Source of the DNA: Botryllus schlosseri
Lineage: Eukaryota
Reading direction: 5' to 3'
Assembly: GCA_051294905.1 (NCBI GenBank)
Contig: CM119386.1
Coordinates: 15,748,001-15,812,000, forward strand
DNA: 64,000 bases
Shown: piece after piece, positions 19,101 to 57,319 of the stretch
How positions within the stretch are numbered: position 1 is the first letter of the stretch
Layout: each line of letters begins with the position of its first letter
Notes under the pieces: generated by a model
What the model saw: only the letters and a program-made list of their open reading frames with translations
Told to the model about the DNA's origin: nothing
Database searches by the model: none
Translations under genes and position numbers: made by a program

Positions 19101-19383
19101 TCAATGTGATAACATTAGCGGTAGCGTACACACCATAGTTCTATGAGATCGTTTGATTCTTTTCTCCACAGACATATTTGTTCTATTACAGGAGCTTATC
19201 GGACAAATCACTACCTGGCGGGGAGTTGCGGCTGGCATTTTTATGGTTTTTGCAGTCATCACAATCATATTGCTGGTGTGCTTGGTGAAATCAAAAAGGC
19301 GTTATGCGAAATTACGAAAGAGTAGACTAGGAATACCGTTTAGTGATGAAGTGGGATATAGTAATCGCGCAACTGGAGCATGA
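16120..19383 (+). CDS. Single-CRD TNF-receptor-like type I membrane protein, paralog 1 (BCMA/TACI/Fn14-type), 176 aa; exons 16120-16130, 16383-16488, 16598-16727, 17554-17645, 19192-19383
   Basis: All four introns are GT-AG with consistent phases (2,0,1,0). Translation gives a signal peptide (YYCLILAFLVLITCDGVKG), CRD CKLGQFYSYETETCKSCYRNCGDSVDLISCGFEC (C-x12-C-x2-C-x3-C-x8-C-x3-C, the BCMA spacing), a stalk with NLT and NAS sequons, TM (GVAAGIFMVFAVITIILLVCLV) and a short basic tail. Confidence 0.85.
17812..18530. mobile_element. MITE-like element with ~100-bp imperfect inverted termini, in intron 4 of receptor paralog 1
   Basis: 17815-17910 is a diverged reverse complement of 18440-18530 (gaattccaagtggattacaaaaaacaaaattgaaaaattt). 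Confidence 0.6.
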
Positions 19384-25006: not shown

Positions 25007-26349
25007 CAAGTGGTTCCCAACCGCCGGTCTGCGGACCGGTGCCGGTCCGCGAGGTAAATTACAATTTGATACTTTAATTTCAAGATGCAATGTTGAAGGC
25101 TTGTCCATTGATAAAATAAATAAAGCATCAATTTTTTAAGCGATTCATAACTTTGCGAGGTAACATTAGGGCTGGAAACATGTTCGATGTGACTTAAAGT
25201 TCAAGACGTTTCATTTGGCGACATGCGAGCGAGAAGTACAGAACAGATGCGAGCTCCCTCATCGCTAAGCGCAGTTTGGTCATTGGTTTTTGATTCATTC
25301 ATTTTGTGCAGGACCGTAACTGGGGCACCCCAAACCGCCCAATTGGAGAGGGGCCGAGCCTAAAAAGGGCCCAAACTACTTCGCAAATGAACATAAATCA
25401 TAGCGTATTTATTAGAAACTTTTTCCAACATTTTTCATTTACTTTTCGCGCTTTGCACGATTTAGTGTCCCTAAATGTCTTGCTTATTAGGTGCCCTCCT
25501 CCGAGAAATACACATGATTGATTTATAGGCATTTCGGCGTCGGCCATTACCGCGACACGACGTACCAGCACATAATGAAGTTTAGGTGAACATGGGACTT
25601 CGAAAGGTGGACCAAAAATTCGTCCGCGAGAAAACCGCTTCGGTCGTGAGTGATCGAAAATTTTCGCTATTGGCGCGATAAACTGCGTAAACTCTCTGCT
25701 TACGCTGAGTAGAATGGATTTGATCGTAAGTACAGGTGAAAACATCCACCCAACTGTGGGGTCTGGGGACGAAGCCCCCGGAGGTTTTGCTTATCCCCAT
25801 GTGGGGGCTCCAAGACCAACGTTTTTGGGGTGGGCTGACGAAGTGCTTTTTCGGTTCGGATTTGCGAATGGCCGGTATAGCTGCTTCAATGTGTTTTCTT
25901 GCAGCACGTATTGTATTCGTAGTTGCCAGAGTAGCCTGCGTCTGGTGGCAGTGGGCAATGAGCAAGCAGCACGACGCTGGATCCGATACGCTGCATCTTT
26001 CGATATTGTCAAAGATAAGAATATTATTAGAGTTGGCGTCGACGGTTAAACTCACGGCCTTCGGCGCGAAAGACTGTAAACGACTGTCGGCGGTAGCACG
26101 TTTATCTGGACAAGGCAATTTTACATCGACTCGGCAGACTCACTACCATAAAATCACATGGATGCCATGAGGAATATAATTAAATACGATCAAAACCCTC
26201 TAAATGTCACTCTACAGTACCATGTATTTGCAAAAAACGGTTGCATACTTTACATTTTGGCTTCATTTGAATTTTGAAAGTTCACCGGTCCGCCAGACAT
26301 TTGTTGAAATTTTACCGGTCCGCGAGGCGAAAAAGGTTGAGAACCACTG
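25007..26349. mobile_element. hAT-type MITE (~1343 bp)
   Basis: Ends CAAGTGGTTCCCAACC / GGTTGAGAACCACTG with CCGGTCCGCG repeats; the right TSD copy is degraded (GGATTATA vs GATA). Confidence 0.65.
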
Positions 26350-28074
26350 GATACCACTGACTACGCTATCTCGCCTCTAGGCTCAGGATCGTGACTAAAT
26401 TGGCTCATCGCGAAGCCAATCATCTGACAACTCATCGCGTTGGATAATTAGGTACGATTTATCGGAGCTACATGCGTTGGCCATGGCCAATGAATCTCAG
26501 ATTCTATTGTTTCTATCTGCTCATAAGTAGAGCTGGACAAAATCGAGCAACTTGATGAGTCGATCTCGGATCGTGTAGACTTCGAATCAAGTCGCGTATC
26601 GATCATTATGACGTTGTAACATGATGAATATACTGAAAAGCTCAAATTTGTACCTTCTAACTTGGTGGTTCCCAACCCTTTAACGATATTTGAGCAAAAA
26701 TTTCCCCAATTAGAATAGGTCATCCGGTGAATAAAAAGGTGCTTTCTAACGCACGACCATTTGTTGACTGAGCAATAGGCCTATATGTCTAAACTATGTC
26801 GAATGCGGACCCCGTTACACATTCGTAGAGTACCGCAGACTACTTCCGTATATATTATTTAGCGCTATAGGCTATAGGTGTATAATTTCAATCTTTTTTT
26901 TTTCTTTCTGAAAATGAAGGACTGTATATAAGTGCTAAACTAGATTGCAGACATTTGCCAATCTCGTGCTAATGAGAATCAATTCCGATTTTACAGGAAC
27001 AAGTTTTCGCGAATTCAGTAATTATAATTATAATATAATTTGAAAAAGTTGAACATTTTCTGCTTGTCCCTTGTCCATGTCTGGTCGTAGCAAGGGAAAC
27101 AATTTCGGTACTCGAATCCAACAATCACAATTGTCACTCGATTCGTATCCGAGTACTTGAGCCGCTGTATCCATTTCCACTCATGAGACACATAATGTAG
27201 AATGCGATACACAAGGCACAACGAATGAATGAATAAATGAATAAATATAGGCCTTCGGTCTCGCCTCGCCCGACGATACAAAGCGCGCCTGTGCTGAGAA
27301 TCGAATCATCTTTCTCTCACGTCGATGGCTGTGCTTTTCAACCTTTTTGGACACCATCCGCACTTTTTTCGCTAAAACATTCATCCGGGCAGACCAATAG
27401 AAAATTGTTTTACAAAAAGAAAATGAATATACTTACCAATATTTTGTTGAGACGTACAACAAGTAAGATACTGGTGAAGGCCGTCAAGTGACTCATAAAA
27501 AAGACAATTATTTTCCCTCGTTTTGATTTCAAATATAGCGCACTAAACCACTTTTCGGCTAAATGAGTAGCCGGGTTTTGTGCAAGAACCCTGTTGCAGT
27601 GGTTCTCAAACAGGGGCACGAAATCTTTCACTATCTTTGAGAGCCACTGGTCTAGTGATTGGATAGCCATGTATTTATAAAAACGTCCCAGCACTCCCAT
27701 CAAAATACAGCGTATTTTCCACGAGTGAAAAATGCTTGCTGGCTGCAATCGTTTATAAGAGTATGTCACAATGGTTCGTCGAAGGGGTGCAAAATCCACA
27801 TGCTTGCTAGTAGTAGAGAAATGGTGGATATAGCCGCATATCGTCTTGTAACTTAAAGAAACTAAAATCTCTAATAAAATAAAGAAACAAAGGATAACGG
27901 ACTTACGCATTTTGCAGAATTGCAGTTCGTGACGGATTGCTGCAAGCGATCTGATCGATATGTGGCTGTCTGATTTCCGATTGAAATGAGTTTGGTGTAA
28001 TATTTCTGACGTAATTTTCGCGGTTGTAGCGTGACTTGTTATTTATGAGTGGATTGATAACTGGTTCTGTCTGT

Positions 28075-29265
28075 TGATTTCAAAACCCGGCTGACCTATC
28101 GTGTCGCGCTTTCTGGAATTGAGTACGGTTGCTATCTGTGTGTCAAAACTCGTTTGCGGTGAATATAATTTTATTATCAGGCGAATAATATCAAGGTTAT
28201 TGTCTTTGCTGTAATCGAATCTTTCTGGATCTCTATGGTGTGTACTCCGACGAAACGGAAAAGTTGACGCGGCATGACGCGGCGTGTAATCGTGGGTTGG
28301 TTGATCCAATTTCTCTTGAATGTGATGGGATGAGGGAAAATTTGCCCATTGAACATTACAGCTGTGAAGTGAACGCTCCTCTTGATCCGTATATGAGAGC
28401 CTTATGCTATACCTCAAGTGCACGGTCAAGGCGTTGGGCCAAACGAAACGATGTAAATTCACGCTTGCCGTTTGAACTGGCATACTCTGGTCCGGAACGA
28501 TAACCGTTCAGATCTGTATTAGAGTGATATATATGTATTCTTGGTATCATTTTTAAGGCTACTTGCAGAATTACGTAACTCACTATCGGGCGATGAACGG
28601 ATTCCGAAACTAGAAATGGTCCTGCCTGGCGATTTAAAACTCGGCTGACCTATCATGTCGATCAATGATTTCCGGTTCAATTGAGTACGGCTGCTATCTG
28701 CGTATAATCAAAACTCGTTTATGTTAAATTAAACTCGTTTGAATTTATTATCAGGCGAATATACTCAAGGTTACTGTATTATTTGCTGTAATTTTCCGCG
28801 TATGACGATCGAATCTTTTTGGATCTCTGTAGTGTGTAACCCGACGAAACGGAAAAGCTCGCCTGGCGTGACTCGCCGTGTCAGCGTATAATGGCGGGTT
28901 GATTGATTGATGGGTATATGATGACAATTTATGCTATGTTTCAAGCGTACGGTCAAGGTCACACGAATCGATGTAAAGTCTCGCTTGGTTGGATTCTCGT
29001 ACTTGGATGGGGTGGGGGGTGGCTGACTAAGGGGCTACACATCCAAAACTACTTCCGTAACCCAATGTCAGTCAGGCGCAGAGACGAGCGGATATAAAAA
29101 TTTGGTATTCTGAAACCATCTTGCTCCGGCTTATATTTTAAAACTCAACTGGCGTATGATTTCTCTTGAATCTCTCAATCAATAATTCCCGGTTCAATCG
29201 AGTGTGAATGCAAGCTGTCTGTGTGGTGCACGCGTTATCAAATCAAACTCGTTTGTGTCATTGAG
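28075..29265. repeat. Subterminal diverged tandem repeats (~550-bp period, 2 units plus a partial third); mirrored at ~41650-42840
   Basis: ggctgacctatc at 28089 and 28643; ttattatcaggcgaata, ggatctct and cgacgaaacggaaaag are shared between units. Confidence 0.8.
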
Positions 29266-29477
29266 TCCATGGTAGGCCTATATCACATTGATATCATTGT
29301 AAGCAGACAGTTTTGAGTAACTATGTGGGATTCTATTGAAAACAGCTTTATTACAAAGAAGCCGAGATAAGTCCATCGCTGTTGCTACTTGCTACCCGCC
29401 ATTTTCAAGTGGTTTTTGACGACGTCCAAAGCTACTTCCCGCAGCTTACGACAGTAGAGAGCGAGTGTGCCAGGAGC

Positions 29478-30150
29478 GAGCCTCGTATACGGTACAAACG
29501 AGTGTGGATTTGAATGGGAAAACAAGGCATTGGGGGATCTTTACTGGATTACTTTTGGATTTAAGTTTATTCGGACCCGGATTTGTGGATTTTACATGCT
29601 ACTCGCGAAATAATATCGCGGGCAAGTGATCCCCATGAATCAGCCGTGATCGATCGGGAGGTGATGCGATGATGTCAGTCTGGATTCAAAATACTCGTTT
29701 GGATTAATCACATCATAGTAATCAGTTTTCTTCTGGCTCGTGACTCTTGCATCGATGTGGTTCCTGTATCGAGAACTACGATACTAGATTCCATTGTACG
29801 CCGACGAATCGGGGCTCGTATACTGTACAAATGAGCGTGAATTCGGATGGGAGTACGGCGCATTGGAGTATTTTTACTGGATTACTTTTGGATTTACGTA
29901 TATCCGGACCCGGATTTTTTAAATTGTACATGCTACTGGCGAAATAATTGCGCTAGTAAGTGATGGCCATAAATCAGCCGTGATCGATCGAGAGTGATAC
30001 GATGATGTCGGTCGGGGTTTAAAATACTCATTTCGATTAATTCCATCAACGTAGTCATCTTCTTCTGACTCGTGACTCTTCCGTCGATGTGGTTCCTGTA
30101 TTGAGAACTATACGATACTCGATTCCATTGTACGCTGACGTATCGAAAAA
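29478..30150. repeat. Diverged tandem duplication, period 333 bp; mirrored at ~40765-41437
   Basis: tactggattacttttggattt at 29542 and 29875; cagccgtgatcgatcg and cgatgtggttcctgtat in both units. Confidence 0.85.
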
Positions 30151-30867
30151 GTTCGCCTCGTTTCGTAGGATACTGGGGGAAAGGCTTAATCTCGCTGAAT
30201 ACGAGTTTGGGAATATTTGGCGTTATATTCGAGTGATAAAAAACTTATCTCTAGGCAAGTAGACGTACTTGCTGAGTGATTGTAGCCTGCGACCCAAATT
30301 CCCATTGTCTCTGTCCACAATCGCTTGTGAAGTGGTGTAATGAATCGGTGATCCGAATCCAGCCCGGAATTGCTCCTGCTCCTGGATCCGATCGTAATCA
30401 CCTCCGCTCAGATGTGATCAACCTGTTGACGGATATACAGTCTTGTCGTCATCGTTGTATGTTAAGTTGACGGAATAATACTTGATCATAATGAGCAATC
30501 TGTAAGATATACATCTCAGTAGTACCGTGTTTTCTGTTTCACGGTCATACAAATCGGGTGCAGTTCAGATTAGCAAGAAATCGAGCAGTTTCATTTTCCT
30601 GGTACTGAGTTGAGACGCAATAACTACTGGTCAGGCGTAATCATCTTCCATCTACAAAGGATGTTTCATTTTGGTATGGCTGCATATCAATTGTGTATAT
30701 AAACTTGTATTTCGGCAGTCGATGAAGAAAATATGTAACCCGTTTGCTAAATATGTATGTTGTCTATTTTAGGAACACGAGAAGTGAAGTACATCAACAG
30801 TTTGATGTCAAAGAAAATATTATCCATGACGAAGCGTGAATAATGATTTTACCCGCTGCGTGTCGAA

Positions 30868-30997
30868 ATAGCGTATAGCGTATAGCGTATAATAGCGTCG
30901 ATTCCGCAGCTGCAACACCAATGGGTTGCGGGTTCGAGTCCGACTGAGTTCGACTGCAGAATTCTTACCCAAGTGTTGGATGTTTATCTAGGCTCCT
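30868..30997 (+). mobile_element. SINE family A head fragment inside the left arm
   Basis: cagctgcaacaccaatgggttgcgggttcgagtccgac...gtttatctaggctcct, shared with the host SINE copies. Confidence 0.75.
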
Positions 30998-33241
30998 ATT
31001 TTTCATATAATCCGTACAAGCGATGCCTTCTAGAAGCTCAGAAGTGGGCAGTGCTACAAGTCGGTATCTACAGGACACAAATGACGTAAATCGTCCTGGT
31101 TGAAATGACCGTATTAGCAGTCTACAAGCACAATGAATATCACAAACAACGAAACAAACTCTACCCGCCATGATATCGACTCCAGCAGGACATATTTTCG
31201 ATATATTGAGATATGTAAATTTCATTCTTAATATTTTCAATCTTGCAAGCGAACCATATCTTTTAGGGCGGCAATAATACAAGATTTGTCGTTATCGACT
31301 AACGCTGTCAAGGGCGATTTGGTGTATGGAAATGTGAATATTGATTACGACGGTGCGATTTTGGACGGTTCGCCGCGGTAAACGATCCTTGATATCAGGA
31401 AACAATCAGGCGCAGTCTGAAAATATAGTCGAACATTCGTACCCTGCTACAATACCAAGCACAAAGCGTTATTGGAAGAAAAAAATGCGATGAAGCGGCG
31501 ATCGATATGCATCGTACAAAGACGTAGTAGTAGTCACGCACAAACACACACACACACACACACTAGAATACTAGTCAGATTATAGGACCACGAACTAACA
31601 TATCGATTCAGTTTTCCATCCCATGCCACCTCATTTTGTCTCTTTCCTTTCATATTCTCTGCTTTAGTTTTCATTCGGTGTGCATTCCTCTTCTTTACTT
31701 TACCTATGCCAAGGTGGGGTGTGCGATTTCAAAGACTACTCCAAGCTCCAATTCGTTTCGACACCTCCCTGTCTTTCATTGTATCGCAGTTTTGTAGTGT
31801 TTTGAAACGATGAAAATATTAATAAACTAACACTGATACACTAAATTATCCCAAGAACAGCTGCAATACAGAAACGTTTGAGGTCTATATATTTGCGATT
31901 TTTTATTGCGTGTGAAGATTTAAAAACGACTAGTAGAATAGGTAGGAGAAGACTGGAGGAGCAAGCTCTAGCACATAATAGACATTTCGTCCATCAGTAT
32001 TGGTGTTTGTAAGGCAGGGCTAGAATCTGTGTAAAATGAGGAAAATTACTATATTATGAATGGGAGGCATTCAATAGCACCCAAGCAGAGTTCTGAAAAA
32101 CGTGAGTTGAACTGGATTGGATCCGAAAATGAACAATGCGCAGTGAGCACAATGACTCGGACTCGAGTCTCAACACCGTGATTCGGAGTTGAATATTCGA
32201 ATCCTGAGTTGGACTCGGTGGTGAATGGAAAATGATTCGACTTGACTCGAGTCCTACCGAATGTTGGGATTAAGTCACCATCCTCGAGTCACGAGTAGGG
32301 CTAGGCACAATGATTCGTGTACCCGAATCTGAAACGAGTAATATATATAACGATTCTAGTCGAGTAGTAAAAGACGATTTTTTTTCGAGTACTGAAAATA
32401 TACGCTTCTATCGCCACTAAACGGCAATTTATCAACGAAAGTCATAGGTTCGATACTAGTTTCAAGTGTGGAAGCTGTAAAACTTTGATTGGTCGTATCG
32501 CAGCATACGAAACCTACAGACTACAGTACAATGCTACGAAAGTTACTGAAAATAACAAATCGCTGGTATGCCAGCTAGTTTTATGGCTCTACAGCATCAC
32601 CAGATTTTTATGACTCTATATGGCGGGTGTTTTCAACCCGGATCCAATCATCTGGATAGTAAGTAGCCTATACACAAGTAAGTAACTCCGTCGGTCGGAA
32701 GAAGTAGGCGTATCACGCGATATACTTTTTCGTATCATAGATAATGATATCATGCAAATTCTGCACGAGATGTGTCTTGGAAGTGGCACGTAAAACGTTG
32801 TTGTCCCCCACCAATATAGCTTCTCTAGATGAGATGTCTTATTCGTTTTGCTATCTGACCCGTTTGTGGAAATCTTCAGCGACAATTATTGTTCTGGGGA
32901 TCATTTTCGTTGAGTATTAAAATATGGTCTCTCGCAGAGCGTGACGGTCAACAAATGTATGTCTCAAATATTCAGCGGAAACCGGGGTACATTATTGTTC
33001 GAGACTCCTATATATGACTTGGAATAAAGCACCGATGCCTTGTCATTCAGAGGCTGCTGTATCGAGAGCGTCCATGGCAGTTGATCGAATAATCATGTGA
33101 GAAGATGGTCAAATATGATTGTCTACCTATCTATTATGAATATTCTATTTCGGAGTGTTTCCTTGTATATCCCCGAGAGTGACGACATAGAGTTGACTAT
33201 TACTGATCTCGCGATGTGAGAATACAACTCGTGAAAAGAAG

Positions 33242-33805
33242 CTTCAATATACAATTAAATAGTATATTCATATTGAAATGAACCCGAATATTTTCGGCTG
33301 ACACTCGTCAGGGGTAATCGTCAGCAACTAGTAGAGAATTGGAAAGAACATTGTATATCAACAATCGTATCACAAAATATGACGTCACCAGCATGAAATT
33401 TCGAATGAGAGAACGTTCAATGTACTATTTTTAGGTGATACACGAACTCCTTTTGTTGACAGAGTTTTGGTTGGTGTATTTTGATAAAAGTTGATTCCAA
33501 GGCACACAAATGGAATTGTGAATTGTGAATTGTGGAATTGTGTGCCTTGGAATCAACTTTTATCAAAATACACCAACCAAAACTCTGTCAACAAAAGGAG
33601 TTCGTGTATCACCTAAAAATAGTACATTGAACGTTCTCTCATTCGAAATTTCATGCTGGTGACGTCATATTTTGTGATACGATTGTTGATATACAATGTT
33701 CTTTCCAATTCTCTACTAGTTGCTGACGATTACCCCTGACGAGTGTCAGCCGAAAATATTCGGGTTCATTTCAATATGAATATACTATTTAATTGTATAT
33801 TGAAG
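33242..33805. repeat. Perfect hairpin: 268-bp arms (33242-33509, 33538-33805) and 28-nt loop, part of a 595-bp insertion present only in the left arm
   Basis: Arms are exact reverse complements by eye; the insertion is bounded by a 10-bp direct repeat AAAGAAGCTT (33235-33244, 33830-33839) that is single-copy in the right arm (~37670). Confidence 0.92.
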
Positions 33806-34606
33806 TTCTGTACCTCTAAGAAGCTCTTCAAAGAAGCTTGTGATCTGTGATGGATTACAGAATATTCCGATGTCAACGCTGACGTTCTTGAAAAGGGTGT
33901 GATTCGTTATAGTTCTGATCTTGTGTGACTACCCCAAACAGTAGATTATCGACTATAAAACGTTTGTGTAGCTATAATTCGTATCCAAGTTGTTGAACTA
34001 AGACATATGACGGTAGAATCGAATGTCATACATAAAAACTTATTCAAATACCTACTAAGAGTGAACATTACAACGTTGAGTCACTTGAAAAGTTGTCGTG
34101 GTAGCGGAATATTGTTTGTGAATCGATATGGTTAGTAACAGTTGCATTGTTCGCACATTTAATGCTATTTATCGATATCGGATCGGCTTATGAAATATCA
34201 GTGTGAGAACCAAGTGCGTGCCAACTGCCCTTTGTCGATGGAAATAAACACCTGTCTCCCGTATTGCTGTCAGAAAACAATCTGTTTTCATGAAATACGC
34301 ATATTTGCACGCCAAGTCCTGCTAATTTTGTTGCCCGTTCGTTTTTGTATTAACATTAAGTGTGTAGTATCGCTCCTTTGGCGATGGTAATTTGGCGGAA
34401 AAAGTCAGCACCTAAGATTAAAAAAATCAACCAGAGAACGAGCTGTTTCTCCGTGACCTTTCAATATTCACCTATGGTTTTGAATTCACAGCAAATGTCA
34501 TTATTGTTGACAATATGTGAATTGCTATCGAAGATTCGTAGTAATGGTTTTGTCTGTTTTTAGGATGATATATTTCTCAAACAGTTTCCCAAAATGAGAG
34601 ACTGTT

Positions 34607-35950
34607 ATGGAAAGACACTTCGACCCGGATCCGCCAGTACAGAGATGCGTATATATCGCGTCGGGTTCTCACCGCTCCGAATTATATAGACTCGCTACGT
34701 TCGCCAGGTTTTCGAGACTGTCGTACACAAAGCGTGCAGATTCAGCATCTGACGGATATTATTGGCTAGGGTTCGAAGACAAAATTAAATGTTTCGGATG
34801 CAGTATTTCACTCGAATAATGGGTTGAAAAGGATACGAATGTAAGTTGTCATGAAGCGAGTTGTGTTCGAGACGTATTCAATATTCCCGTTGAAAGATCG
34901 AATTTCAGGAGTCTATTACGGGAGTTTAAGCTTCAAATCGAGACACCGCAAGTCAATAACAGCGACATAAAACTTGCGAATATCATTGACCGAGAACACG
35001 CGTGTTTGATTAAGAACCTCGACTTGAAAAGGGAATCGAAGCGACGCGAAACCTTCAAGAAATGGCCTAGCTATCCAATACCCCACGCAGTAGGCGAGTT
35101 GGCGAAACAAGGGTTTTTCTATCTCGGTAACTTAGACAGAACGCAGTGCTTTAGCTGCTTCGGTGTTCTTCGCAATTGGAAACCCATAGACGACGTATCG
35201 GAAATACACCTTACACATTTTCCAAAATGTACTTTCGCGCGTGGTAGCTTTTCAGGAAATATCGCACTAGCTGAGCACGACCGCGGCAATTTGGATGACC
35301 TGCTTCACGAGAAAATACGACGGCTCACTATCAATGTGAAAGAACCAGATGAGCCCTACGAGGATGAAAAACACTATCTTGCTGAACTATTCCCTTGGCT
35401 TAACCCCGCGAATCCTGTAATGTCGTCCTTGTCACGAAGAATAGCAACCTTCGACGAAGGTTGGGATCCCGCTAAAATCAATGCTAGCGTTGAGCAATTA
35501 GCAAATGCGGGGTTTTATTACATCGATTCGGACAAGACGAAATGTTTTTACTGCAATGGTGGACTTCGGTGGAACCGGACAGACGAGGTTTGGACGGAAC
35601 ATGCTAAATTGTTTCCGCAATGCGAGTACGTACTTCGAATGAAAGGTATCGAATTCGGGCGAAGCATCGAAAACACATATCCAAATCTCAACCGTCCGAT
35701 TATTAGAAACCCCATCACGAAGTTGGAGTTGACTAAACGACAAAATGTTCTGCGGAATCGTCAATCAAACGATGGATCACCGTTGGATTGCATCGAAAAT
35801 GGGAGAGGCCGTGACGTGTAAACGATGTGAAATAAATATAAATGAATATGACTATAGCATGTGGACATCTTTGCATTGTTTCTAGACTTGTGGGACTGAC
35901 GTAGAACGCAGTGGTGGCAGTCATGAAGTACTTCTATTTTTTTTTTCTCA
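34607..35950 (+). pseudogene. Intronless inhibitor-of-apoptosis (IAP/BIRC family) pseudogene: 3 BIR domains plus decayed RING
   Basis: 34607-35821 is one frame with a single TAA at 34817-34819. BIR1 RLATF..KIKCFGC..*W..CHEASC; BIR2 RRETF..GFFY..DRTQCFSC..W..HLTHFPKC; BIR3 RIATF..LANAGFYY..DKTKCFYC..W..EHAKLFPQC. Frameshifted RING remnants CKRC (35817) and ACGHL (35857) follow. Confidence 0.9.
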
Positions 35951-36062
35951 GAATTTTGGTAGGTTTTACCTAATTACACTACATACTCAAGTGCCTTGTG
36001 TTGGAATACTTCTATTTCTATCAGTTGGATTAGACCGGACATTCTAACTGGTTGTAAAACTA

Positions 36063-36903
36063 TTGCTATTCTTCGTGACAAGGACGACATTACAGGATTC
36101 GCGGGGTTAAGCCAAGGGAATAGTTCAGCAAGATAGTGTTTTTCATCCTCGTAGGGCTCATCTGGTTCTTTCACATTGATAGTGAGCCGTCGTATTTTCT
36201 CGTGAAGCAGGTCATCCAAATTGCCGCGGTCGTGCTCAGCTAGTGCGATATTTCCTGAAAAGCTACCACGCGCGAAAGTACATTTTGGAAAATGTGTAAG
36301 GTGTATTTCCGATACGTCGTCTATGGGTTTCCAATTGCGAAGAACACCGAAGCAGCTAAAGCACTGCGTTCTGTCTAAGTTACCGAGATAGAAAAACCCT
36401 TGGTTCGCCAACTCGCCTACTGCGTGGGGTATTGGATAGCTAGGCCATTTCTTGAAGGTTTCGCGTCGCTTCGATTCCCTTTTCAAGTCGAGGTTCTTAA
36501 TCAAACACGCGTGTTCTCGGTCAATGATATTCGCAAGTTTTATGTCGCTGTTATTGACTTGCGGTGTCTCGATTTGAAGCTTAAACTCCCGTAATAGACT
36601 CCTGAAATTCGATCTTTCAACGGGAATATTGAATACGTCTCGAACACAACTCGCTTCATGACAACTTACATTCGTATCCTTTTCAACCCATTATTCGAGT
36701 GAAATACTGCATCCGAAACATTTAATTTTGTCTTCGAACCCTAGCCAATAATATCCGTCAGATGCTGAATCTGCACGCTTTGTGTACGACAGTCTCGAAA
36801 ACCTGGCGAACGTAGCGAGTCTATATAATTCGGAGCGGTGAGAACCCGACGCGATATATACGCATCTCTGTACTGGCGGATCCGGGTCGAAGTGTCTTTC
36901 CAT
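36063..36903 (-). pseudogene. Inverted truncated copy of the IAP (BIR1, BIR2 and start of BIR3)
   Basis: Mirror of 34607-35447 with the same premature stop; one K/N difference in BIR2; diverges after ...SRRIA at the arm boundary. Confidence 0.9.
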
Positions 36904-39900
36904 AACAGTCTCTCATTTTGGGAAACTGTTTGAGAAATATATCATCCTAAAAACAGACAAAACCATTACTACGAATCTTCGATAGCAATTCACATATTGT
37001 CAACAATAATGACATTTGCTGAGAATTCAAAACCATAGGTGAATATTGAAAGGTCACGGAGAAACAGCTCGTTCTCTGGTTGATTTTTTTAATCTTAGGT
37101 GCTGACTTTTTCCGCCAAATTACCATCGCCAAAGGAGAGATACTACACACTTAATGTTAATACAAAAACGAACGGGCAACAAAATTAGCAGGACTTGGCG
37201 TGCAAATATGCGTATTTCATGAAAACAGATTGTTTTCTGACAGCAATACGGGAGACAGGTGTTTATTTCCATCGACAAAGGGCAGTTGGCACGCACTTGG
37301 TTCTCACACTGATATTTCATAAGCCGATCCGATATCGATAAATAGCATTAAATGTGCGAACAATGCAACTGTTACTAACCATATCGATTCACAAACAATA
37401 TTCCGCTACCACGACAACTTTTCAAGTGACTCAACGTTGTAATGTTCACTCTTAGTAGGTATTTGAATAAGTTTTTATGTATGACATTCGATTCTACCGT
37501 CATATGTCTTAGTTCAACAACTTGGATACGAATTATAGCTACACAAACGTTTTATAGTCGATAATCTACTGTTTGGGGTAGTCACACAAGATCAGAACTA
37601 TAACGAATCACACCATTTTCAAGAACGTCAGCGTTGACATCGGAATATTCTGTAATCCATCACAGATCACAAGCTTCTTTTCACGAGTTGTATTCTCACA
37701 TCGCGAGATCAGTAATAGTCGACTCTATGTCGTCACTCTCGGGGATATACAAGGAAACACTCCGAAATAGAATATTCATAATAGATAGGTAGACAATCAT
37801 ATTTGACCATCTTCTCACATGATTATTCGATCAACTGCCATGGACGCTCTCGATACAGCAGCCTCTGAATGACAAGGCATCGGTGCTTTATTCCAAGTCA
37901 TATATAGGAGTCTCGAACAATAATGTACCCCGGTTTCCGCTGAATATTTGAGACATACATTTGCTGACCGTCACGCTCTGCGAGAGACCATATTTTAATA
38001 CTCAACGAAAATGATCCCCAGAACAATAATTGTCGCTGAAGATTTCCACAAACGGGTCAGATAGCAAAACGAATAAGACATCTCATCTAGAGAAGCTATA
38101 TTGGTGGGGGACAACAACGTTTTACGTGCCACTTCCAAGACACATCTCGTGCAGAATTTGCATGATATCATTATCTATGATACGAAAAAGTATATCGCGT
38201 GATACGCCTACTTCTTCCGACCGACGGAGTTACTTACTTGTGTATAGGCTACTTACTATCCAGATGATTGGATCCGGGTTGAAAACACCCGCCATATAGA
38301 GTCATAAAAATCTGGTGATGCTGTAGAGCCATAAAACTAGCTGGCATACCAGCGATTTGTTATTTTCAGTAACTTTCGTAGCATTGTACTGTAGTCTGTA
38401 GGTTTCGTATGCTGCGATACGACCAATCAAAGTTTTACAGCTTCCACACTTGAAACTAGTATCGAACCTATGACTTTCGTTGATAAATTGCCGTTTAGTG
38501 GCGATAGAAGCGTATATTTTCAGTACTCGAAAAAAAATCGTCTTTTACTACTCGACTAGAATCGTTATATATATTACTCGTTTCAGATTCGGGTACACGA
38601 ATCATTGTGCCTAGCCCTACTCGTGACTCGAGGATGGTGACTTAATCCCAACATTCGGTAGGACTCGAGTCAAGTCGAATCATTTTCCATTCACCACCGA
38701 GTCCAACTCAGGATTCGAATATTCAACTCCGAATCACGGTGTTGAGACTCGAGTCCGAGTCATTGTGCTCACTGCGCATTGTTCATTTTCGGATCCAATC
38801 CAGTTCAACTCACGTTTTTCAGAACTCTGCTTGGGTGCTATTGAATGCCTCCCATTCATATTATAGTAATTTTCCTCATTTTACACAGATTCTAGCCCTG
38901 CCTTACAAACACCAATACTGATGGACGAAATGTCTATTATGTGCTAGAGCTTGCTCCTCCAGTCTTCTCCTACCTATTCTACTAGTCGTTTTTAAATCTT
39001 CACACGCAATAAAAAATCGCAAATATATAGACCTCAAACGTTTCTGTATTGCAGCTGTTCTTGGGATAATTTAGTGTATCAGTGTTAGTTTATTAATATT
39101 TTCATCGTTTCAAAACACTACAAAACTGCGATACAATGAAAGACAGGGAGGTGTCGAAACGAATTGGAGCTTGGAGTAGTCTTTGAAATCGCACACCCCA
39201 CCTTGGCATAGGTAAAGTAAAGAAGAGGAATGCACACCGAATGAAAACTAAAGCAGAGAATATGAAAGGAAAGAGACAAAATGAGGTGGCATGGGATGGA
39301 AAACTGAATCGATATGTTAGTTCGTGGTCCTATAATCTGACTAGTATTCTAGTGTGTGTGTGTGTGTGTGTTTGTGCGTGACTACTACTACGTCTTTGTA
39401 CGATGCATATCGATCGCCGCTTCATCGCATTTTTTTCTTCCAATAACGCTTTGTGCTTGGTATTGTAGCAGGGTACGAATGTTCGACTATATTTTCAGAC
39501 TGCGCCTGATTGTTTCCTGATATCAAGGATCGTTTACCGCGGCGAACCGTCCAAAATCGCACCGTCGTAATCAATATTCACATTTCCATACACCAAATCG
39601 CCCTTGACAGCGTTAGTCGATAACGACAAATCTTGTATTATTGCCGCCCTAAAAGATATGGTTCGCTTGCAAGATTGAAAATATTAAGAATGAAATTTAC
39701 ATATCTCAATATATCGAAAATATGTCCTGCTGGAGTCGATATCATGGCGGGTAGAGTTTGTTTCGTTGTTTGTGATATTCATTGTGCTTGTAGACTGCTA
39801 ATACGGTCATTTCAACCAGGACGATTTACGTCATTTGTGTCCTGTAGATACCGACTTGTAGCACTGCCCACTTCTGAGCTTCTAGAAGGCATCGCTTGTA

Positions 39901-39917
39901 CGGATTATATGAAAAAT

Positions 39918-40047
39918 AGGAGCCTAGATAAACATCCAACACTTGGGTAAGAATTCTGCAGTCGAACTCAGTCGGACTCGAACCCGCAACCCATTGGTGT
40001 TGCAGCTGCGGAATCGACGCTATTATACGCTATACGCTATACGCTAT
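39918..40047 (-). mobile_element. SINE family A head fragment inside the right arm (mirror copy)
   Basis: Reverse complement of 30868-30997. Confidence 0.75.
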
Positions 40048-43000
40048 TTCGACACGCAGCGGGTAAAATCATTATTCACGCTTCGTCATGGATAATATTT
40101 TCTTTGACATCAAACTGTTGATGTACTTCACTTCTCGTGTTCCTAAAATAGACAACATACATATTTAGCAAACGGGTTACATATTTTCTTCATCGACTGC
40201 CGAAATACAAGTTTATATACACAATTGATATGCAGCCATACCAAAATGAAACATCCTTTGTAGATGGAAGATGATTACGCCTGACCAGTAGTTATTGCGT
40301 CTCAACTCAGTACCAGGAAAATGAAACTGCTCGATTTCTTGCTAATCTGAACTGCACCCGATTTGTATGACCGTGAAACAGAAAACACGGTACTACTGAG
40401 ATGTATATCTTACAGATTGCTCATTATGATCAAGTATTATTCCGTCAACTTAACATACAACGATGACGACAAGACTGTATATCCGTCAACAGGTTGATCA
40501 CATCTGAGCGGAGGTGATTACGATCGGATCCAGGAGCAGGAGCAATTCCGGGCTGGATTCGGATCACCGATTCATTACACCACTTCACAAGCGATTGTGG
40601 ACAGAGACAATGGGAATTTGGGTCGCAGGCTACAATCACTCAGCAAGTACGTCTACTTGCCTAGAGATAAGTTTTTTATCACTCGAATATAACGCCAAAT
40701 ATTCCCAAACTCGTATTCAGCGAGATTAAGCCTTTCCCCCAGTATCCTACGAAACGAGGCGAACTTTTCCGATACGTCAGCGTACAATGGAATCGAGTAT
40801 CGTATAGTTCTCAATACAGGAACCACATCGACGGAAGAGTCACGAGTCAGAAGAAGATGACTACGTTGATGGAATTAATCGAAATGAGTATTTTAAACCC
40901 CGACCGACATCATCGTATCACTCTCGATCGATCACGGCTGATTTATGGCCATCACTTACTAGCGCAATTATTTCGCCAGTAGCATGTACAATTTAAAAAA
41001 TCCGGGTCCGGATATACGTAAATCCAAAAGTAATCCAGTAAAAATACTCCAATGCGCCGTACTCCCATCCGAATTCACGCTCATTTGTACAGTATACGAG
41101 CCCCGATTCGTCGGCGTACAATGGAATCTAGTATCGTAGTTCTCGATACAGGAACCACATCGATGCAAGAGTCACGAGCCAGAAGAAAACTGATTACTAT
41201 GATGTGATTAATCCAAACGAGTATTTTGAATCCAGACTGACATCATCGCATCACCTCCCGATCGATCACGGCTGATTCATGGGGATCACTTGCCCGCGAT
41301 ATTATTTCGCGAGTAGCATGTAAAATCCACAAATCCGGGTCCGAATAAACTTAAATCCAAAAGTAATCCAGTAAAGATCCCCCAATGCCTTGTTTTCCCA
41401 TTCAAATCCACACTCGTTTGTACCGTATACGAGGCTCGCTCCTGGCACACTCGCTCTCTACTGTCGTAAGCTGCGGGAAGTAGCTTTGGACGTCGTCAAA
41501 AACCACTTGAAAATGGCGGGTAGCAAGTAGCAACAGCGATGGACTTATCTCGGCTTCTTTGTAATAAAGCTGTTTTCAATAGAATCCCACATAGTTACTC
41601 AAAACTGTCTGCTTACAATGATATCAATGTGATATAGGCCTACCATGGACTCAATGACACAAACGAGTTTGATTTGATAACGCGTGCACCACACAGACAG
41701 CTTGCATTCACACTCGATTGAACCGGGAATTATTGATTGAGAGATTCAAGAGAAATCATACGCCAGTTGAGTTTTAAAATATAAGCCGGAGCAAGATGGT
41801 TTCAGAATACCAAATTTTTATATCCGCTCGTCTCTGCGCCTGACTGACATTGGGTTACGGAAGTAGTTTTGGATGTGTAGCCCCTTAGTCAGCCACCCCC
41901 CACCCCATCCAAGTACGAGAATCCAACCAAGCGAGACTTTACATCGATTCGTGTGACCTTGACCGTACGCTTGAAACATAGCATAAATTGTCATCATATA
42001 CCCATCAATCAATCAACCCGCCATTACACGCTGACACGGCGAGTCACGCCAGGCGAGCTTTTCCGTTTCGTCGGGTTACACACTACAGAGATCCAAAAAG
42101 ATTCGATCGTCATACGCGGAAAATTACAGCAAATAATACAGTAACCTTGAGTATATTCGCCTGATAATAAATTCAAACGAGTTTAATTTAACATAAACGA
42201 GTTTTGATTATACGCAGATAGCAGCCGTACTCAATTGAACCGGAAATCATTGATCGACATGATAGGTCAGCCGAGTTTTAAATCGCCAGGCAGGACCATT
42301 TCTAGTTTCGGAATCCGTTCATCGCCCGATAGTGAGTTACGTAATTCTGCAAGTAGCCTTGAAAATGATACCAAGAATACATATATATCACTCTAATACA
42401 GATCTGAACGGTTATCGTTCCGGACCAGAGTATGCCAGTTCAAACGGCAAGCGTGAATTTACATCGTTTCGTTTGGCCCAACGCCTTGACCGTGCACTTG
42501 AGGTATAGCATAAGGCTCTCATATACGGATCAAGAGGAGCGTTCACTTCACAGCTGTAATGTTCAATGGGCAAATTTTCCCTCATCCCATCACATTCAAG
42601 AGAAATTGGATCAACCAACCCACGATTACACGCCGCGTCATGCCGCGTCAACTTTTCCGTTTCGTCGGAGTACACACCATAGAGATCCAGAAAGATTCGA
42701 TTACAGCAAAGACAATAACCTTGATATTATTCGCCTGATAATAAAATTATATTCACCGCAAACGAGTTTTGACACACAGATAGCAACCGTACTCAATTCC
42801 AGAAAGCGCGACACGATAGGTCAGCCGGGTTTTGAAATCAACAGACAGAACCAGTTATCAATCCACTCATAAATAACAAGTCACGCTACAACCGCGAAAA
42901 TTACGTCAGAAATATTACACCAAACTCATTTCAATCGGAAATCAGACAGCCACATATCGATCAGATCGCTTGCAGCAATCCGTCACGAACTGCAATTCTG

Positions 43001-44595
43001 CAAAATGCGTAAGTCCGTTATCCTTTGTTTCTTTATTTTATTAGAGATTTTAGTTTCTTTAAGTTACAAGACGATATGCGGCTATATCCACCATTTCTCT
43101 ACTACTCTTGCTTTGGTGCTTATGCCATATGGCTTGAAAAATAAGCTCCAAAACTATCATGGAGAATGAGCACATTAGAGCTCGCTACCTTCTGATACGC
43201 TGCTCCAATTTCCCATTTTCTGTTTCGCGAGTAAATGAGAACAGACAAGAAAGTCAGGTTACCGTGTGTTCAGCCCTCATTCTCAATCTAACTTGAGAAT
43301 GAGAGTTCATAGCATTTCAATAACCTTGAAGCATTGGTCCTTAAACTTGTTTGACTGCGACCAAAATCTTAGTTTCAGTGGTATATCACGACTCAAGCCT
43401 TACACATCAAAAAGAATGCACTTCTAATATTAGTATGCTACCATTTTACGGGCATGTATGACATAAATAACGTGCACACAACAATTGTCCGCAACACAGC
43501 TCTACGAAACATTGGGATTACCATATGTTCTTATCTGGAAACATATCTGACGTAGGCGATTTCAAATTTTGGTGAATTATATATTCCTTTGCTCGTCGCA
43601 TTTCTATTACTGTCTACTCAAATTATTTCAATAAAATTACTTTTAAAATAACTTATAAAAAATACACATTGGAAGGACTGGACTAGAAAGTCAGTCTTGC
43701 GTTATTTTCCCACGTGCCGCAGGATCAGACTTGTTGACGCCCGCCACTACACCCGCTTTCGAAGCAGAATTTCTAGTACGTATTAGTGCGCAAATAATAA
43801 TTCTCTACGGCAGATGAGAGACAAAATTATTGTTAAAGCTACGAACAGGTCAAATAATTTTTTACAATTACGCCGCAACGACAAAAGTGAGGGAGCCACT
43901 GCTGTTGAATTTCCTATCAAGTCTATTTGAATTATTCCACGTTAGAATTATTTGCGATTTTCATCCACTCTCATCCGGATTTTTATCCGCACTCATCCGC
44001 ACCACGTTTGTCGCTCACACAGGAATTTTTTCCATTAAAAGTACTATTGTGGATTATCCAACTACGCCAAGTCTCGCTCATGCCATAAGTTTGGTATGAA
44101 CGGGAGGTTCACGTTCGCGTTCTGTGTGTGAACCTCAGAAATTTGTAGCTTAGCGTTCGCCAACGAACTTTGGTAGGTTCTGCATTGTGAACCTTTACCA
44201 TTTATTACAATTTTTCACATTTGGTAAAATTAAGCTCCGCTTGACAATTAACTTTGTGTGTCTGTGCCAGCCGTCTGCGAAACCGAACTACCAAAGGATT
44301 TTGTTGAGACTTGAGTTGAAAGTACAATGCATTTGACCATTGTCCATCTCTAACACATGCAAATGTATACTCTGTTGATTTCGATTGTTGTTCAAAAGAA
44401 CCTGTTTGTCTGTATATCCACTCACTCATCTCGTTTTGCGCACGTTAGCTCTACTGCAAACACAATTTTCCGTGTTTTGTGGTAATTATGTTATGTTATA
44501 AGTGTATTTTTGAATTTGATCCCTTGGCTATAAACATCTTAATTCCCTTTACCAGCTTAACGGAACCACGGTAAACTATTATAATGAGCACCCGC

Positions 44596-44605
44596 GGGAA
44601 GTTCC
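44596..44605 (+). promoter_or_regulatory. Candidate NF-kappaB site GGGAAGTTCC upstream of receptor paralog 2
   Basis: Matches GGGRNNYYCC, ~200 bp upstream of the ATG at 44800. Motif match only. Confidence 0.4.
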
Positions 44606-44729
44606 CGTGTATAGCCGTGTATTTACACTTCATAAGAGAGACCTTGGCCTATATAATGGCACGGCCACAGACTATATCCGATAGCTATGCAAACTGCAAA
44701 GGCAGGTCTACACTACATACGCAAGTTTC

Positions 44730-44791
44730 TGTTTCAACGAATATCACTGTGCTAGAAGGTTGTTTCAACAAATATCACTGTGCTAGAAGGT
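44730..44791. repeat. 31-bp tandem duplication just upstream of the receptor 2 ATG
   Basis: tgtttcaac(g/a)aatatcactgtgctagaaggt x2. Confidence 0.85.
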
Positions 44792-44799
44792 ACAACTCT

Positions 44800-45921
44800 A
44801 TGGCAAAGATGATGCATCGAATTGTGCGATTATTGATGCTGTTCGCGTTGAGCCAAGCGAGGACTATTACCAACCGAATTAGCGTCGACGAGTTTCAACA
44901 AAGCTTCGTGCAAACACAAAAGGTATCGGTAAATTATTACTCAATAGATGTAGCCATGGCGTACCAGCGACCAGCGTATTATCATGTAGCCTACGTACGT
45001 ACATTGTATAATGCATAGTACAGTACAGTACATCCGCTAAATTGACGTTCAGTTGGATATGGGATATGATTATGAATTGATCATTCCACACAGGCCCTTA
45101 TCGACATCGGAAACAGATGCGTGACGGAAGAGTTTTTTGATTTGGAATTAGAAACTTGCAAGAACTGCGAGACGCACTGTCCCGACAACCTATGTGGGCA
45201 ATGTAGAGGTGAACTGCTGGTTTAGAATTTAACTATAACTGAGTTGTCCGCGAGCTCGTGTTCTGCATTTCAACAGTGTATTTTTTGGAGAAATTATCCA
45301 GTGAACAGATGCGAAGGTTGGATGCCAGAATCCTCCTACTCGAAAAAAATGTGAGTCGAATAGGCCGAATAGTGACCTTCGCAAACCTAACGGGCTTAAG
45401 CTACAGAAGACTGTTGAAGAAATTAAGGGTAAACCGCAGTTATTTAATCTATGAGATCGAAGTTTATCCCGTTTGTCACTGGACAATATATATTTGAGAA
45501 GTCAAATCACTATTGTAATGTAATTGCATATTGTCGACCCGGGGTTACGCCACAGCCTTCCTTGCTTTCTCCATGACGATCCGAAGGAAATAGTTCATTT
45601 GTATGATTGCAGACAAACGAGACGTGGCAATGGGCGGCAATAATAGCTATAACGCTGGTGATGTTCGGGACAGCAGTAATTTATTTCGCCTGGAGAAAAT
45701 GCGGTAAAACGAAGCAGTGCAACTACGGGCAGAGGAGAACTGCAGCCGTGCAAACGCAGCGTTCCCTTGAAGGATTGACTGTAGTTTGTCATCCCGCACA
45801 ATTTGTTCAGCCGAACAGAGGTAGGGATGGTACAACCTCCCCTAGACGATACGTCACGCTACAATATGAGACTCAGCATGGATACGAAATGGAGACTGCT
45901 ACATCAACTGATTCCGTCTGA
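44800..45921 (+). CDS. Single-CRD TNF-receptor-like type I membrane protein, paralog 2, 206 aa; exons 44800-44922, 45094-45208, 45277-45350, 45613-45921
   Basis: GT-AG introns with phases 0,1,0, matching paralog 1. Signal peptide MAKMMHRIVRLLMLFALSQA; CRD CVTEEFFDLELETCKNCETHCPDNLCGQC (six Cys, FD as in BCMA YFD); stalk exon VYFLEKL.. parallels SYFAIVNL..; TM WQWAAIIAITLVMFGTAVIYFAW; cytoplasmic tail without a death domain. Confidence 0.87.
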
Positions 45922-49226: not shown

Positions 49227-51188
49227 AGCTGATCACATTTTAGTCACTGTGATTTTAATTGCCGATTGTGGAGTCATTACACTGCGATCAGGTTCTATTA
49301 GGTCGGAAAATCTGAATTCCATTGACCACTGCGAAGAAACCCCACAGGAACACTCTACGATCGGGGTCCGCAGCGGAGCATCTGGTTCCGGGAGGTACGG
49401 ACCGTGTAATTCGGCGCAAAAGAACAGAAACATAATTTTGCAGCCTTGCTCTAATGAAAGATAAAGTTTATAGATAATGAAATTGCTAATTAATGAAAAA
49501 ATATAATAACCCTGATTTGCTCGAAATGAATCAACGACATTGAAATAGCCTTGTGAACACGATGCTGATTATAGGGTTGCATATAAAATATAAATCAATT
49601 TAAAACAAATATGTTTAAAACATGGCCCTTGTTTGAAACACGTTTTATATCATTTTATTTATTTTTATTCGGTCTTGACGTCACGAGTCTTTAATTGTGA
49701 CATCAGAGTGGATTGAATTTGACAATTGAGGATATATAGAGTAAATATGGCCCCTTCGACGAAAAGGGCTTCCGACCACTGTGATAAACAGACCAAAAAT
49801 ATCTAACCAGAACTACATCGTTATGCAGCATTTTTACTGTCGACGGTCATCATCATCACAACGCCCATTCCGTACCAATGATCTATATCTACTTGCTATA
49901 TCTGTTGAACCTACGACGATATCGAGGGTTCCAGCCACCCCACATCGCATACGTCCACTGTATTGAGTGCAAATGGTCAGTAGGATCAACTACTAGATGT
50001 TTTTTCGAAATTATTTACACAGTTATGGCATAATTAGACAACGTTTGAAATAACACATTTTTTTAAAATTCTTTTGTTTAAAACACTGTTTAATCATGTT
50101 TCATTAAACAAAGTATTTTAAAGCACATTTGTTTTGAATGCAACCCCATGGTGATATAATTCGCAAATGTATTACTTTCAAGGCTGAAATCGGGTACCGT
50201 GAAGAGAAAATGAACTGACACACATGTAAACACAGGAAACTGTATTTCCGGGTTCTTATCGATATCTGAAAGTCTGTTTTTGTCACGCCAGTGTAGATTT
50301 CACGAAATTAGAACGTCGTTGTGACTTTTTTCGCAATGCCATATGATATTTGCGTTTCACTACCCGTATAGTCATAACCCTATGCAATGCCAAATACGAA
50401 TTTTGAGGCGTTGTTCTCGACTTTCAGTGGTCCACATCATTCTACGGGAATTTATATGCTTGAATGGGGTCAACCAATAATAGGACGGTTGCGGTATGTC
50501 ATGTGACCACTTGGTTAATAATTATAATCATGACAGATCTTCCTCCCATCAATAGATCTTCTGAACCATATCTTTCTCCAGATTTGAGCTCTTACCATAC
50601 AGCTGTCTTCATTTAGCCTAGTAGTACGGTAATGCGTTTTACCGCGCTGTTACAAAAAGAGGTTTTTGTTAATAGTGAAAGATCGCTGATGACTTATGCG
50701 CTTTATAAACTTGGTAAGTTACTATTTGGTTTCCCCTAGTTTTCGAGCAAATAAAAAGCATACGGGGTGACCATTTGCAATTGCGATCAGCAGCATTTTA
50801 TTGCTGGGCCGATATATACTTTTCGAACTTTTGGGAATAGCGAATTTGGAATCACTAAAAGTTAGAACGGGGCCTGAGCCAAGGTTAAGCCAAAGTTGCA
50901 CAGTTCGTTCAGAATGGAGTATCTACGGGCGTATGGGGTCGTCGTCTAAAATACCGAAACATGAGACCAAGGTGTGGTGATTATTGTTTCTTCGTGATCT
51001 CACCAATTGTGTTGATTACCCGCATTTGTGTTGATTACCCGCATCTTAACCTACCTATATATTGAGTGTTTTATATACCGCATTTAGTTGCTTGAGTCTT
51101 CATTTAGTTAATATAAATCAAACTCGTAGTACGTTTTCAGTGCAATTTTATTACCTAAACGAACGTTGACGTCTTTTCCGTAAAAGAC

Positions 51189-55790: not shown

Positions 55791-57319
55791 CCATTTTGTC
55801 GTCGATCGATTGTGGTGATTATTGTTTCTTCGTGATCTCACCAATTGTGTTGATTACCCGCATTTGTGTTGATTACCCGCATCTTAGCCTACCTATATAT
55901 TGAGTGTTTTATGGACCGCGTTTAGTAGCTTGAGTCTTCATTTAGTTAATAAAAACCAAACTTGCGTTGAGGTCGTAGTACGAAACCAAACTTGCGTTGA
56001 GGTCGTAGTACGTTTTCAGTACACAAGGTTTTAGGGAACTGAGCGGAGAACATTTTATAGGAGTAAGATCTGTCATCGTTACTAACCTAATGATGACATG
56101 AGATTCCTTGAACATCCAATCGTGAGATATTTGAGTTCCGTGGATATAAATACCTGGAGGATGATGTACAGGCCGCTTATTTTTGGCATTTTTCAGATTT
56201 TATTTTTGGCAATTTTGCCATCGCCGTGATTTCATATATATAGACTCGAAATAACCATTTAAATCGCTTTGATCTTTCTTTTAAAACAGAAGTCACAAAT
56301 GATGCAGTATGCACATTGCACACTCTGTCATCAAACAGCAAGATTTAAATCCGAATTGAAAACGATATCGTAGACCAAATTTATCCGATACAAAAGCGAG
56401 TGGTTCTGCAATACCTATTATCAAAAATCTATTCACTACGCGTACGACATTACCAGCATTCACACAGCCCACACAATATGTACGATAACAAATCAAAAGT
56501 GTTTCTGATACGTTTGGATAGCATTCTTCACTACCCAACTAATGGTTATAAATGATGGGTAACTTTAATAATAATAATCAATGTAACGTGGAAAAATTAT
56601 TCACCCACATGCTAAGATTTTCATTAACATGTTGAAAGTAAATGGAAAATTTATACACATAGACCTAAATGCAGCACGGGTCGCTCGGGTCGGCTACATA
56701 AGGTGGTGCATGGGCGGTGATGACAGGAAAATGCCTAATAGTCATTGAGCTACATCCCTAATTGCAGGATATCATTTACTACCCGAGTTGATCAATCTAC
56801 ACTAGTATGTCGTAAATCCCGATTTCAGTATTCGACTTTTTGGCCTCGGCCCGTAGATTTTCATTCGCATTACATAGATCACCTGCACGGTAGACCGCGG
56901 CCTTCCGAAGGGTTCACGGATCTTAATTTAGGAATTTAGCGTTACACACTTGATTTGTCGCTTCATGCAGGATCATTTCAATACTTGTTGACATTTCTAC
57001 CTAAAACTTTCATGAAGATCTATATTTTCAAAAAGTCTTATTTCTGGTATTTAAATTTTTTATTTTTGGCAGTTTTGGCATTTGGTTCCCGAAATGGCAA
57101 AAATAACACGGCCTGAAGATGTGGGTGGCAACTGTGATAATCGGAAAATGCCTCATAAGTATAGTATAGTTTCACTTTCTAAATTAATTTTGAACAAATC
57201 TAGTTCACATTGTACAATTGTAGCCTAATGTACAATACATGCTCAGTGGGAGTTGGTTGTCAATCAAAACCGCCCAGCCCAATGAAAAAACATGAAGCGC
57301 CCGCGATATGATTATTGTT

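Follow-up and report, generated by a model that had tools for sequence, protein, structure and literature searches.

A palindromic Maverick-like element without detected core genes carries a decayed, intron-free IAP gene in Botryllus schlosseri

Introduction

IAP genes are already known from Polinton-type elements of animals. Adintoviruses and animal Polintons carry IAP and Bcl2 homologues (Starrett et al. 2021, PMC8502044), and the IAP homologues, in the accessible text of that report, are on gene-complete elements and appear in one sentence and in map labels that are not tied to a species. Vertebrate Mavericks are described as 12.7-24.6 kb long, with (AGT)2...(ACT)2 ends, a 6-bp target-site duplication, inverted arms of 46-1,447 bp, and accessory regions that adjoin the core modules (Barreat and Katzourakis 2021, PMC8097293). 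Nematode Mavericks, which are largely complete, carry host-type genes between the element end and the core, and this cargo retains its introns (Widen et al., bioRxiv 10.1101/2022.07.12.499685).

IAP genes also move by other vehicles. Endozoicomonadaceae and mollusc herpesviruses carry intron-free IAPs that were taken from marine invertebrate hosts, including ascidians; as reported, these genes encode BIR and RING domains and are expressed (PMC11521996). Within animal genomes, lineage-specific IAP expansions are common, and the routes have mostly been inferred from position and intron counts, with intron-free duplicates and a role for DNA transposons under discussion (PMC13159474). A mechanism that copies a genome end back on itself, and so inverts part of a gene, is described for the snapback subgenomes of AAV, which are packaged parvovirus episomes (PMC8235507).

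Here we describe an IAP gene on an element in a 64,000-nucleotide stretch of the Botryllus schlosseri genome (the window). The locus resembles the adintovirus case in that an anti-apoptotic IAP homologue is on an animal Polinton-type element. Unlike the adintovirus genes, however, this one has three BIR domains and an ascidian donor clade, lies on a core-less palindrome, is duplicated head to head, has a broken RING, and is interrupted by a stop. The element shares its ends and its 6-bp duplication with vertebrate Mavericks, and its length is within their range, whereas its arms are about 7 kb long and no core genes were found. Like the nematode cargo the gene is of host type, but it has no introns and its element is not complete. 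The Endozoicomonadaceae and herpesvirus genes are likewise intron-free and of invertebrate origin, but they are borne by a bacterium or a herpesvirus and keep a RING. AAV snapbacks, the nearest published parallel, are an analogy only, the element being an integrated 15 kb with a target duplication. IAPs on Polinton-type elements are already known, and what appears to be new is the palindromic, core-less form with head-to-head IAPs. In the open-licence literature we came across no account of an IAP being amplified by a palindromic Maverick that lacks core genes. The word "Maverick" does not occur in the accessible text of a Botryllus genome paper, and the palindromes discussed there are much larger (PMC12448946).

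Results

The element occupies positions 27809-43106 of the window (15,298 bp), starting with AGTAGTAG at 27809 and ending with CTACTACT at 43106. It is flanked by CTTGCT on the left (27803-27808) and again on the right (43107-43112), a target-site duplication of the 6 bp typical of Mavericks. The end motifs, AGTAGT...ACTACT, have the (AGT)2...(ACT)2 form, one of two accepted for Maverick/Polinton elements (the alternative is (AG)3...(CT)3). The inverted repeats are unusual. In Mavericks they measure tens to about 1,500 bp, whereas here they are about 7 kb each and make up nearly the whole element. The left arm (27809-35447, plus strand) mirrors the right arm (36063-43106, minus strand) with 99.9% identity; the two differ at 10 of about 7,040 aligned positions (6 in 5,436 and 4 in 1,618).

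The fold of this palindrome passes through an IAP gene. A unique loop of 615 bp (35448-36062) contains most of BIR3, the linker and a RING remnant, and BIR1 and BIR2 are present in both arms, head to head. The second, mirror copy of the gene is on the minus strand (36063-36903); it begins with an ATG at 36903, has the same premature stop as the first (36691-36693), and is cut off at the start of BIR3. Both the palindrome and the second IAP copy were missed in the preliminary description of this DNA.

The arm contains several repeats besides the IAP. Two diverged repeat units, about 70% alike and with no coding match, lie at 28059-28887. They are followed by two tandem units of 333 bp that are 83% alike (29482-30145) and whose mismatches lack codon periodicity, i.e., they are non-coding. 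A dispersed host repeat, probably SINE-like, lies inside the arm at 30903-31146 and is also found elsewhere in the window. The left arm alone contains a self-palindromic, MITE-like, high-copy insert of ~590 bp (33237-33832). The insert-free joint of 33234-33830 is present in sequencing runs X4 and X1, and the depth of the insert is hundreds of times that of the arm. Confined to one arm, it is a dating mark for the insertion. The ratio of observed to expected CpG is 1.52 in the IAP, 1.17-1.34 in the arm, and 1.01-1.09 in the flanks.

None of the Maverick core genes (protein-primed PolB, integrase, ATPase, protease, major and minor capsid) was found in the element, although highly decayed remnants could escape such searches. 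Against Pfam, six read-through frames of 26001-36000 matched BIR only, and 88 ORFs of at least 40 aa gave only weak, sub-threshold matches. Comparison of 23 ORFs with PHROGs gave one weak match, and the best score of the arm against the protein atlas, 0.75, is uninformative. Polymerase-like motifs that were seen by eye in the arm are unsupported by Pfam, PHROGs or the protein atlas. Because the ends are those of a Maverick and no core gene was found, we regard the element as non-autonomous and outside the autonomous family; ends and duplication, occurrence in multiple copies, and the lack of detected core genes are together those of a non-autonomous Maverick derivative. The preliminary description had placed the IAP inside a Polinton-like element, which agrees with the ends and the 6-bp duplication, but the arm yielded no core Polinton gene.

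Three BIR domains are encoded in one intron-free frame on the plus strand (34607-35821), which runs from the ATG at 34607 for 404 codons to a TAA at 35819-35821. The Pfam BIR family (PF00653) matches three stretches of this frame (E 6.4e-48). The zinc-ligand motif of BIR1 is at 34790-34864; that of BIR2, an intact C-x2-C-x16-H-x6-C, is at 35147-35230; and that of BIR3, in the unique loop, is at 35543-35623. BIR2 and BIR3 retain their zinc ligands. Inside BIR1 there is a premature in-frame TAA at codon 71 (34817-34819), the one stop in the first 394 codons, where the mean of 2000 shuffles was 22.7. Thus, the gene has the three zinc-ligand BIR domains of the XIAP/DIAP2-like IAPs, but its reading frame is not open, as the codon-71 stop is present in both arms, nor does it end in an in-frame RING, the remnant of which lies in two other frames. 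An AATAAA is found at 35831, 3' of the terminal TAA. Upstream, a splice-acceptor-like run (34548-34563) lies 43 bases 5' of the ATG, and a spliced 5' leader is possible.

Compared with three Styela IAPs, the element protein has deletions, and its insertions are of single residues only; therefore, no intron is hidden in the BIR frame. The alignment with Styela clava XP_039274671 (P0001) has seven deletions and one single-residue insertion, and all eight keep the frame. In BIR3, there are two single-residue deletions relative to the Styela homologues. The Pfam matches, the zinc-ligand motifs and the lack of any intron-sized insertion relative to Styela bear out the earlier claim of three BIR domains in one intron-free frame.

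The same claim had included the RING in this frame, and that part does not stand. The BIR frame ends at 35819-35821, and the RING motifs are in the other two frames, with CxxC at 35817-35828 and CGHLC at 35860-35874, in a remnant on the plus strand at 35817-35930 (the 3' limit is approximate). Pfam searches of the region and its ORFs gave no match to this remnant. The pair of motifs occurred by chance in 11 of 20000 shuffles, and we therefore consider the remnant real. The CGHLC frame has an additional stop downstream of the RING motifs. At least three of four breaks are within the RING tail of ~170 bases (binomial P about 0.007). The gene had been described as inactivated by the TAA in BIR1; that stop is present, but the damage goes beyond it, with three or more breaks in the RING tail.

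The frame-keeping indels, the single stop and the retained zinc ligands of BIR2 and BIR3 point to past selection on the BIR part, and we infer that a RING-less, three-BIR stage was once under selection. The frame-keeping indels and the long branch of the gene (see below) could also predate capture and have arisen in the host gene. Selection may have acted in an autonomous Maverick, in the satellite or still in the host.

The lack of introns is informative only from BIR3 onward, because BIR1-BIR2 is natively one exon in chordate XIAP-like genes, in which BIR3 is spread over three exons (PMC13159474). In the element, BIR3 is unbroken by introns. All six Ciona three-BIR genes have multiple exons (7-22), and 1 of 18 Ciona IAPs is single-exon (PMC13159474, supplement Data 2). 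Since BIR3 is unbroken here, split in chordates, and part of a multi-exon gene in all six Ciona cases, introns were likely lost from the parent gene. The host genes in the window are plausibly intron-rich, judging from short exon-like ORFs. The marks of a processed retrocopy, a 3' poly(A) tract and a flanking repeat of its own, were not found: 35701-36062 contains no stretch of at least 7 A residues, and the longest flanking direct repeat is 10 bp, with repeats at least as long in 18% of 300 shuffles. The fold truncates the 3' side, and the sequence past it is lost. An mRNA step is not known Maverick behaviour, as the nematode cargo keeps its introns.

The IAP is of ascidian type. Its closest named proteins are BIRC7-like and XIAP-like IAPs of Styela clava (44% over 430 columns). 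In a 47-row tree of BIR2-BIR3, from which L004 was left out (no usable ORF), the element IAP nests with four Styela-clade rows (98/93; a fifth row, 100/98) and is apart from the IAPs of vertebrates and molluscs and from three IAPs of virus contigs. When BIR1-BIR3 was used, in a tree of 18 rows from which P0037 was left out (motif not found), it fell in the same Styela clade (99/97), and a further tree rooted on two vertebrate rows did not resolve its position. Its branch is long, 0.9-1.5 changes per site. The nesting among Styela IAPs, far from the three virus-contig IAPs, indicates that the gene is host-derived, as had been proposed. It has in common with the Styela and other chordate XIAP/DIAP2-like (BIRC7-like) IAPs the order of three BIRs and a RING, ascidian-type motifs and a clade, and it is unlike them in lacking introns and in having shorter linkers, an out-of-frame RING, a premature stop and a long branch.

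An autonomous Maverick carrying the element IAP was not found in a scan of viral contigs (4 loci, with distant IAPs at 27-31%) or of metagenomes (34 loci), and a scan of prokaryote genomes gave one locus, from Endozoicomonas ascidiicola, and no Maverick-borne element IAP. When the element was compared by tblastx with the 38 collected loci, 1 of 280 matches was outside the IAP, and it was 23 residues long.

Sequences from other runs join IAP variants to element DNA. Four of 24 sequencing runs were compared with 27300-36062 at 85% likeness. A contig from X1 joins the upstream arm to the IAP over 33850-34792 (943 bp, 4 differences), and one from X14 does so over 33850-34889 (1040 bp, 43 differences, 4 gaps). 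Another variant of the IAP is present in X4, with 25 differences over 189 bases. The linkage of variants to the same element DNA shows that the gene is not a one-off retrocopy and upholds its status as cargo, as claimed in the preliminary description. In X4, a DNA run, summed depth over the IAP was 1,077-3,101 with a median of 1,428 (5 bins), which is not a copy number, and the median over the arm was 1,873 (14 bins without host repeats). These are of the same order, and so the IAP is part of the repeated unit. Eight single contigs listed for X4 had depths of 5.7-19.6. The two arms are 0.14% apart, whereas they differ from six long X1 contigs by about 0.85%. Run X14 is RNA by guess only, and it covers non-coding arm DNA as well. 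X24, a single-cell RNA library of which about 3/100 of the run was read, had no depth over 34625-35503, and we draw no inference from this. Summed depth in X4 over 35211-36062 is about half that over 34039-35210, a drop that is not seen in X1, where a contig runs straight through 35447. The drop in X4, near the border of arm and loop, may mean that the fold of other copies is close to this position.

Discussion

We favour, with confidence somewhat above even, the view that the IAP was an accessory gene of an autonomous Maverick and is now a dead passenger of a helper-dependent offshoot. The trees show that the gene descends from a stolidobranch XIAP/BIRC7-like IAP. Its introns would have been lost through cDNA before or at capture, and the cDNA step may precede capture; the linkers would have been shortened with the frame kept. 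We suspect that loss of the RING tail came first and left a BIR-only gene of 404 codons. The BIR domains of IAPs bind caspases or IAP antagonists, and a BIR-only product is predicted to do so without ubiquitin-ligase activity.

The palindrome most likely arose during replication of the element. A polymerase would have started at one end, proceeded for about 8 kb, reversed direction shortly beyond the IAP, and gone back over that end. Such copy-back in end-primed replication would produce two arms, the 615-bp loop and the truncated second IAP. Integration left the 6-bp duplication that is observed, with the integrase presumably supplied in trans. Both arms carry the BIR1 stop, and they are closer to each other than to the long X1 contigs; the gene had therefore probably lost its function before this copy of the element formed, and the offshoot would not have needed the IAP to move. 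Alternatively, the shared stop could come from arm-to-arm conversion after insertion. The events may then have followed in the order of capture, RING loss, stop, fold-back, insertion, and finally the arrival of the MITE-like insert in one arm. The preliminary description had seen in the IAP support for a virus-like lifestyle. In the analysed copy the gene is a passenger, and by itself it is no evidence of such a lifestyle.

A different history, which we consider possible but doubtful, is that the non-autonomous lineage itself acquired an intron-free IAP and multiplied it, without the gene ever serving an autonomous Maverick. The IAP could have come from a retrocopy in the host genome, from a paralogue naturally without introns, or from another mobile element that carried it. 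The presence of host repeats and non-coding tandem units in the arm indicates that the element picks up host DNA; intron-free IAP duplicates are common in animals, being reported in 12 of 20 species (PMC13159474); and the IAP is dead in both arms of the analysed copy. However, the BIR part has suffered much less damage than the RING tail, a pattern not expected from drift alone. The CpG ratio, raised in the IAP and arm relative to the flanks, is a further, weak sign that the gene has resided in the element for a long time.

The view that the IAP once served an autonomous Maverick also has a bolder extension, which we think improbable. A Maverick virus could have captured a host IAP that selection then reduced to a blocker with three BIRs and no RING, and snap-back satellites could then have folded through the gene. 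Their transcript would be an IAP hairpin of about 841 bp around a 615-base loop, and this double-stranded RNA could silence the IAP family of the helper and perhaps of the host. If so, a parasite would be making double-stranded RNA in a colonial sea squirt whose bodies undergo programmed cell death every cycle. IAP transcripts are reported to rise at the apoptotic generation change of Botryllus (PMC4818882), which describes the setting only and has no tie to the element locus.

Transfer through a symbiont is very unlikely. An Endozoicomonas could have taken an ascidian IAP and passed the intron-free gene to the element, or the gene could have moved in the reverse direction. Endozoicomonas IAPs from ascidian hosts are published (PMC11521996), and the IAP of Endozoicomonas sp. 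ex Botrylloides leachii (P0132) is the best phmmer match to the element IAP among 1.84 billion representatives and is in the same Styela clade (99/97). P0132 nevertheless tops this list partly through its repeated domains, and over BIR2-BIR3 it is 44% identical to the element, compared with 52-54% for Styela P0001 and P0019. The free tree keeps the element and P0132 apart; a tree constrained to join them is 8.15 log-likelihood units worse (p-AU 0.07), so that their joining is neither rejected nor favoured.

The symbiont IAPs themselves (P0132, P0041/P0266, and L039:474-1679 from E. ascidiicola) are split between two ascidian IAP clades, a placement pointing to separate host-to-bacterium captures. 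P0132 is 1184 aa long, with an N-terminal, signal-peptide-like hydrophobic stretch and a repeated BIR3.

We give equally little credence to the idea that the mirror and the second IAP come from an assembly fold-back or from two haplotypes joined head to head. The near identity of the arms is what such an error would produce, and the central junction is not among the 15 joints listed of 1,346. However, the 6-bp duplication is perfect at both outer ends and the flanks beyond it differ, the ~590-bp insert is in the left arm alone with its empty form in X4 and X1, and at two of the ten arm mismatches (30146 and 33194) other runs read the right-arm letter, indicating that the left arm has private changes.

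The weakest explanation, a local retrocopy that landed in this one copy of the element and that the preliminary description had named as the case against its own reading, fits an IAP that is intron-free and broken, but we give it hardly any weight, as the gene is in both arms and so predates the mirror, several variants in other runs are on the same upstream arm DNA at arm-like depth, and there is neither a poly(A) tract nor a flanking direct repeat above chance level.

The palindromic Maverick offshoot is a visible vehicle for the spread of IAPs, carrying one and a half IAP copies at a time to many sites. IAP counts in genomes with such elements include copies that are element-borne and dead. 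The locus also makes it possible to test the capture of a host gene by an animal Polinton, with a donor clade that can be traced. The analysed IAP copy is a fossil, whose use lies in recording the order in which the events took place.

Other sequences in the window

A decayed Gypsy-type LTR retroelement is on the plus strand at 50973-55962. Its 152-bp direct repeats are 95% alike, and between them are matches to a zinc knuckle, reverse transcriptase, RNase H and integrase. At 16565-19380, 44575-45918 and 62349-62534 there are short, exon-like ORFs, parts of which are cysteine-rich or resemble signal peptides or transmembrane segments. Read by eye and with no family match, these ORFs on either side of the element suggest a cluster of small TNF-receptor-like genes. 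On the minus strand at 1280-1783 there is a partial match to the Nanos zinc finger (E 4.3e-12), which covers profile positions 1-35 of 54 and probably represents a single exon of a nanos gene.
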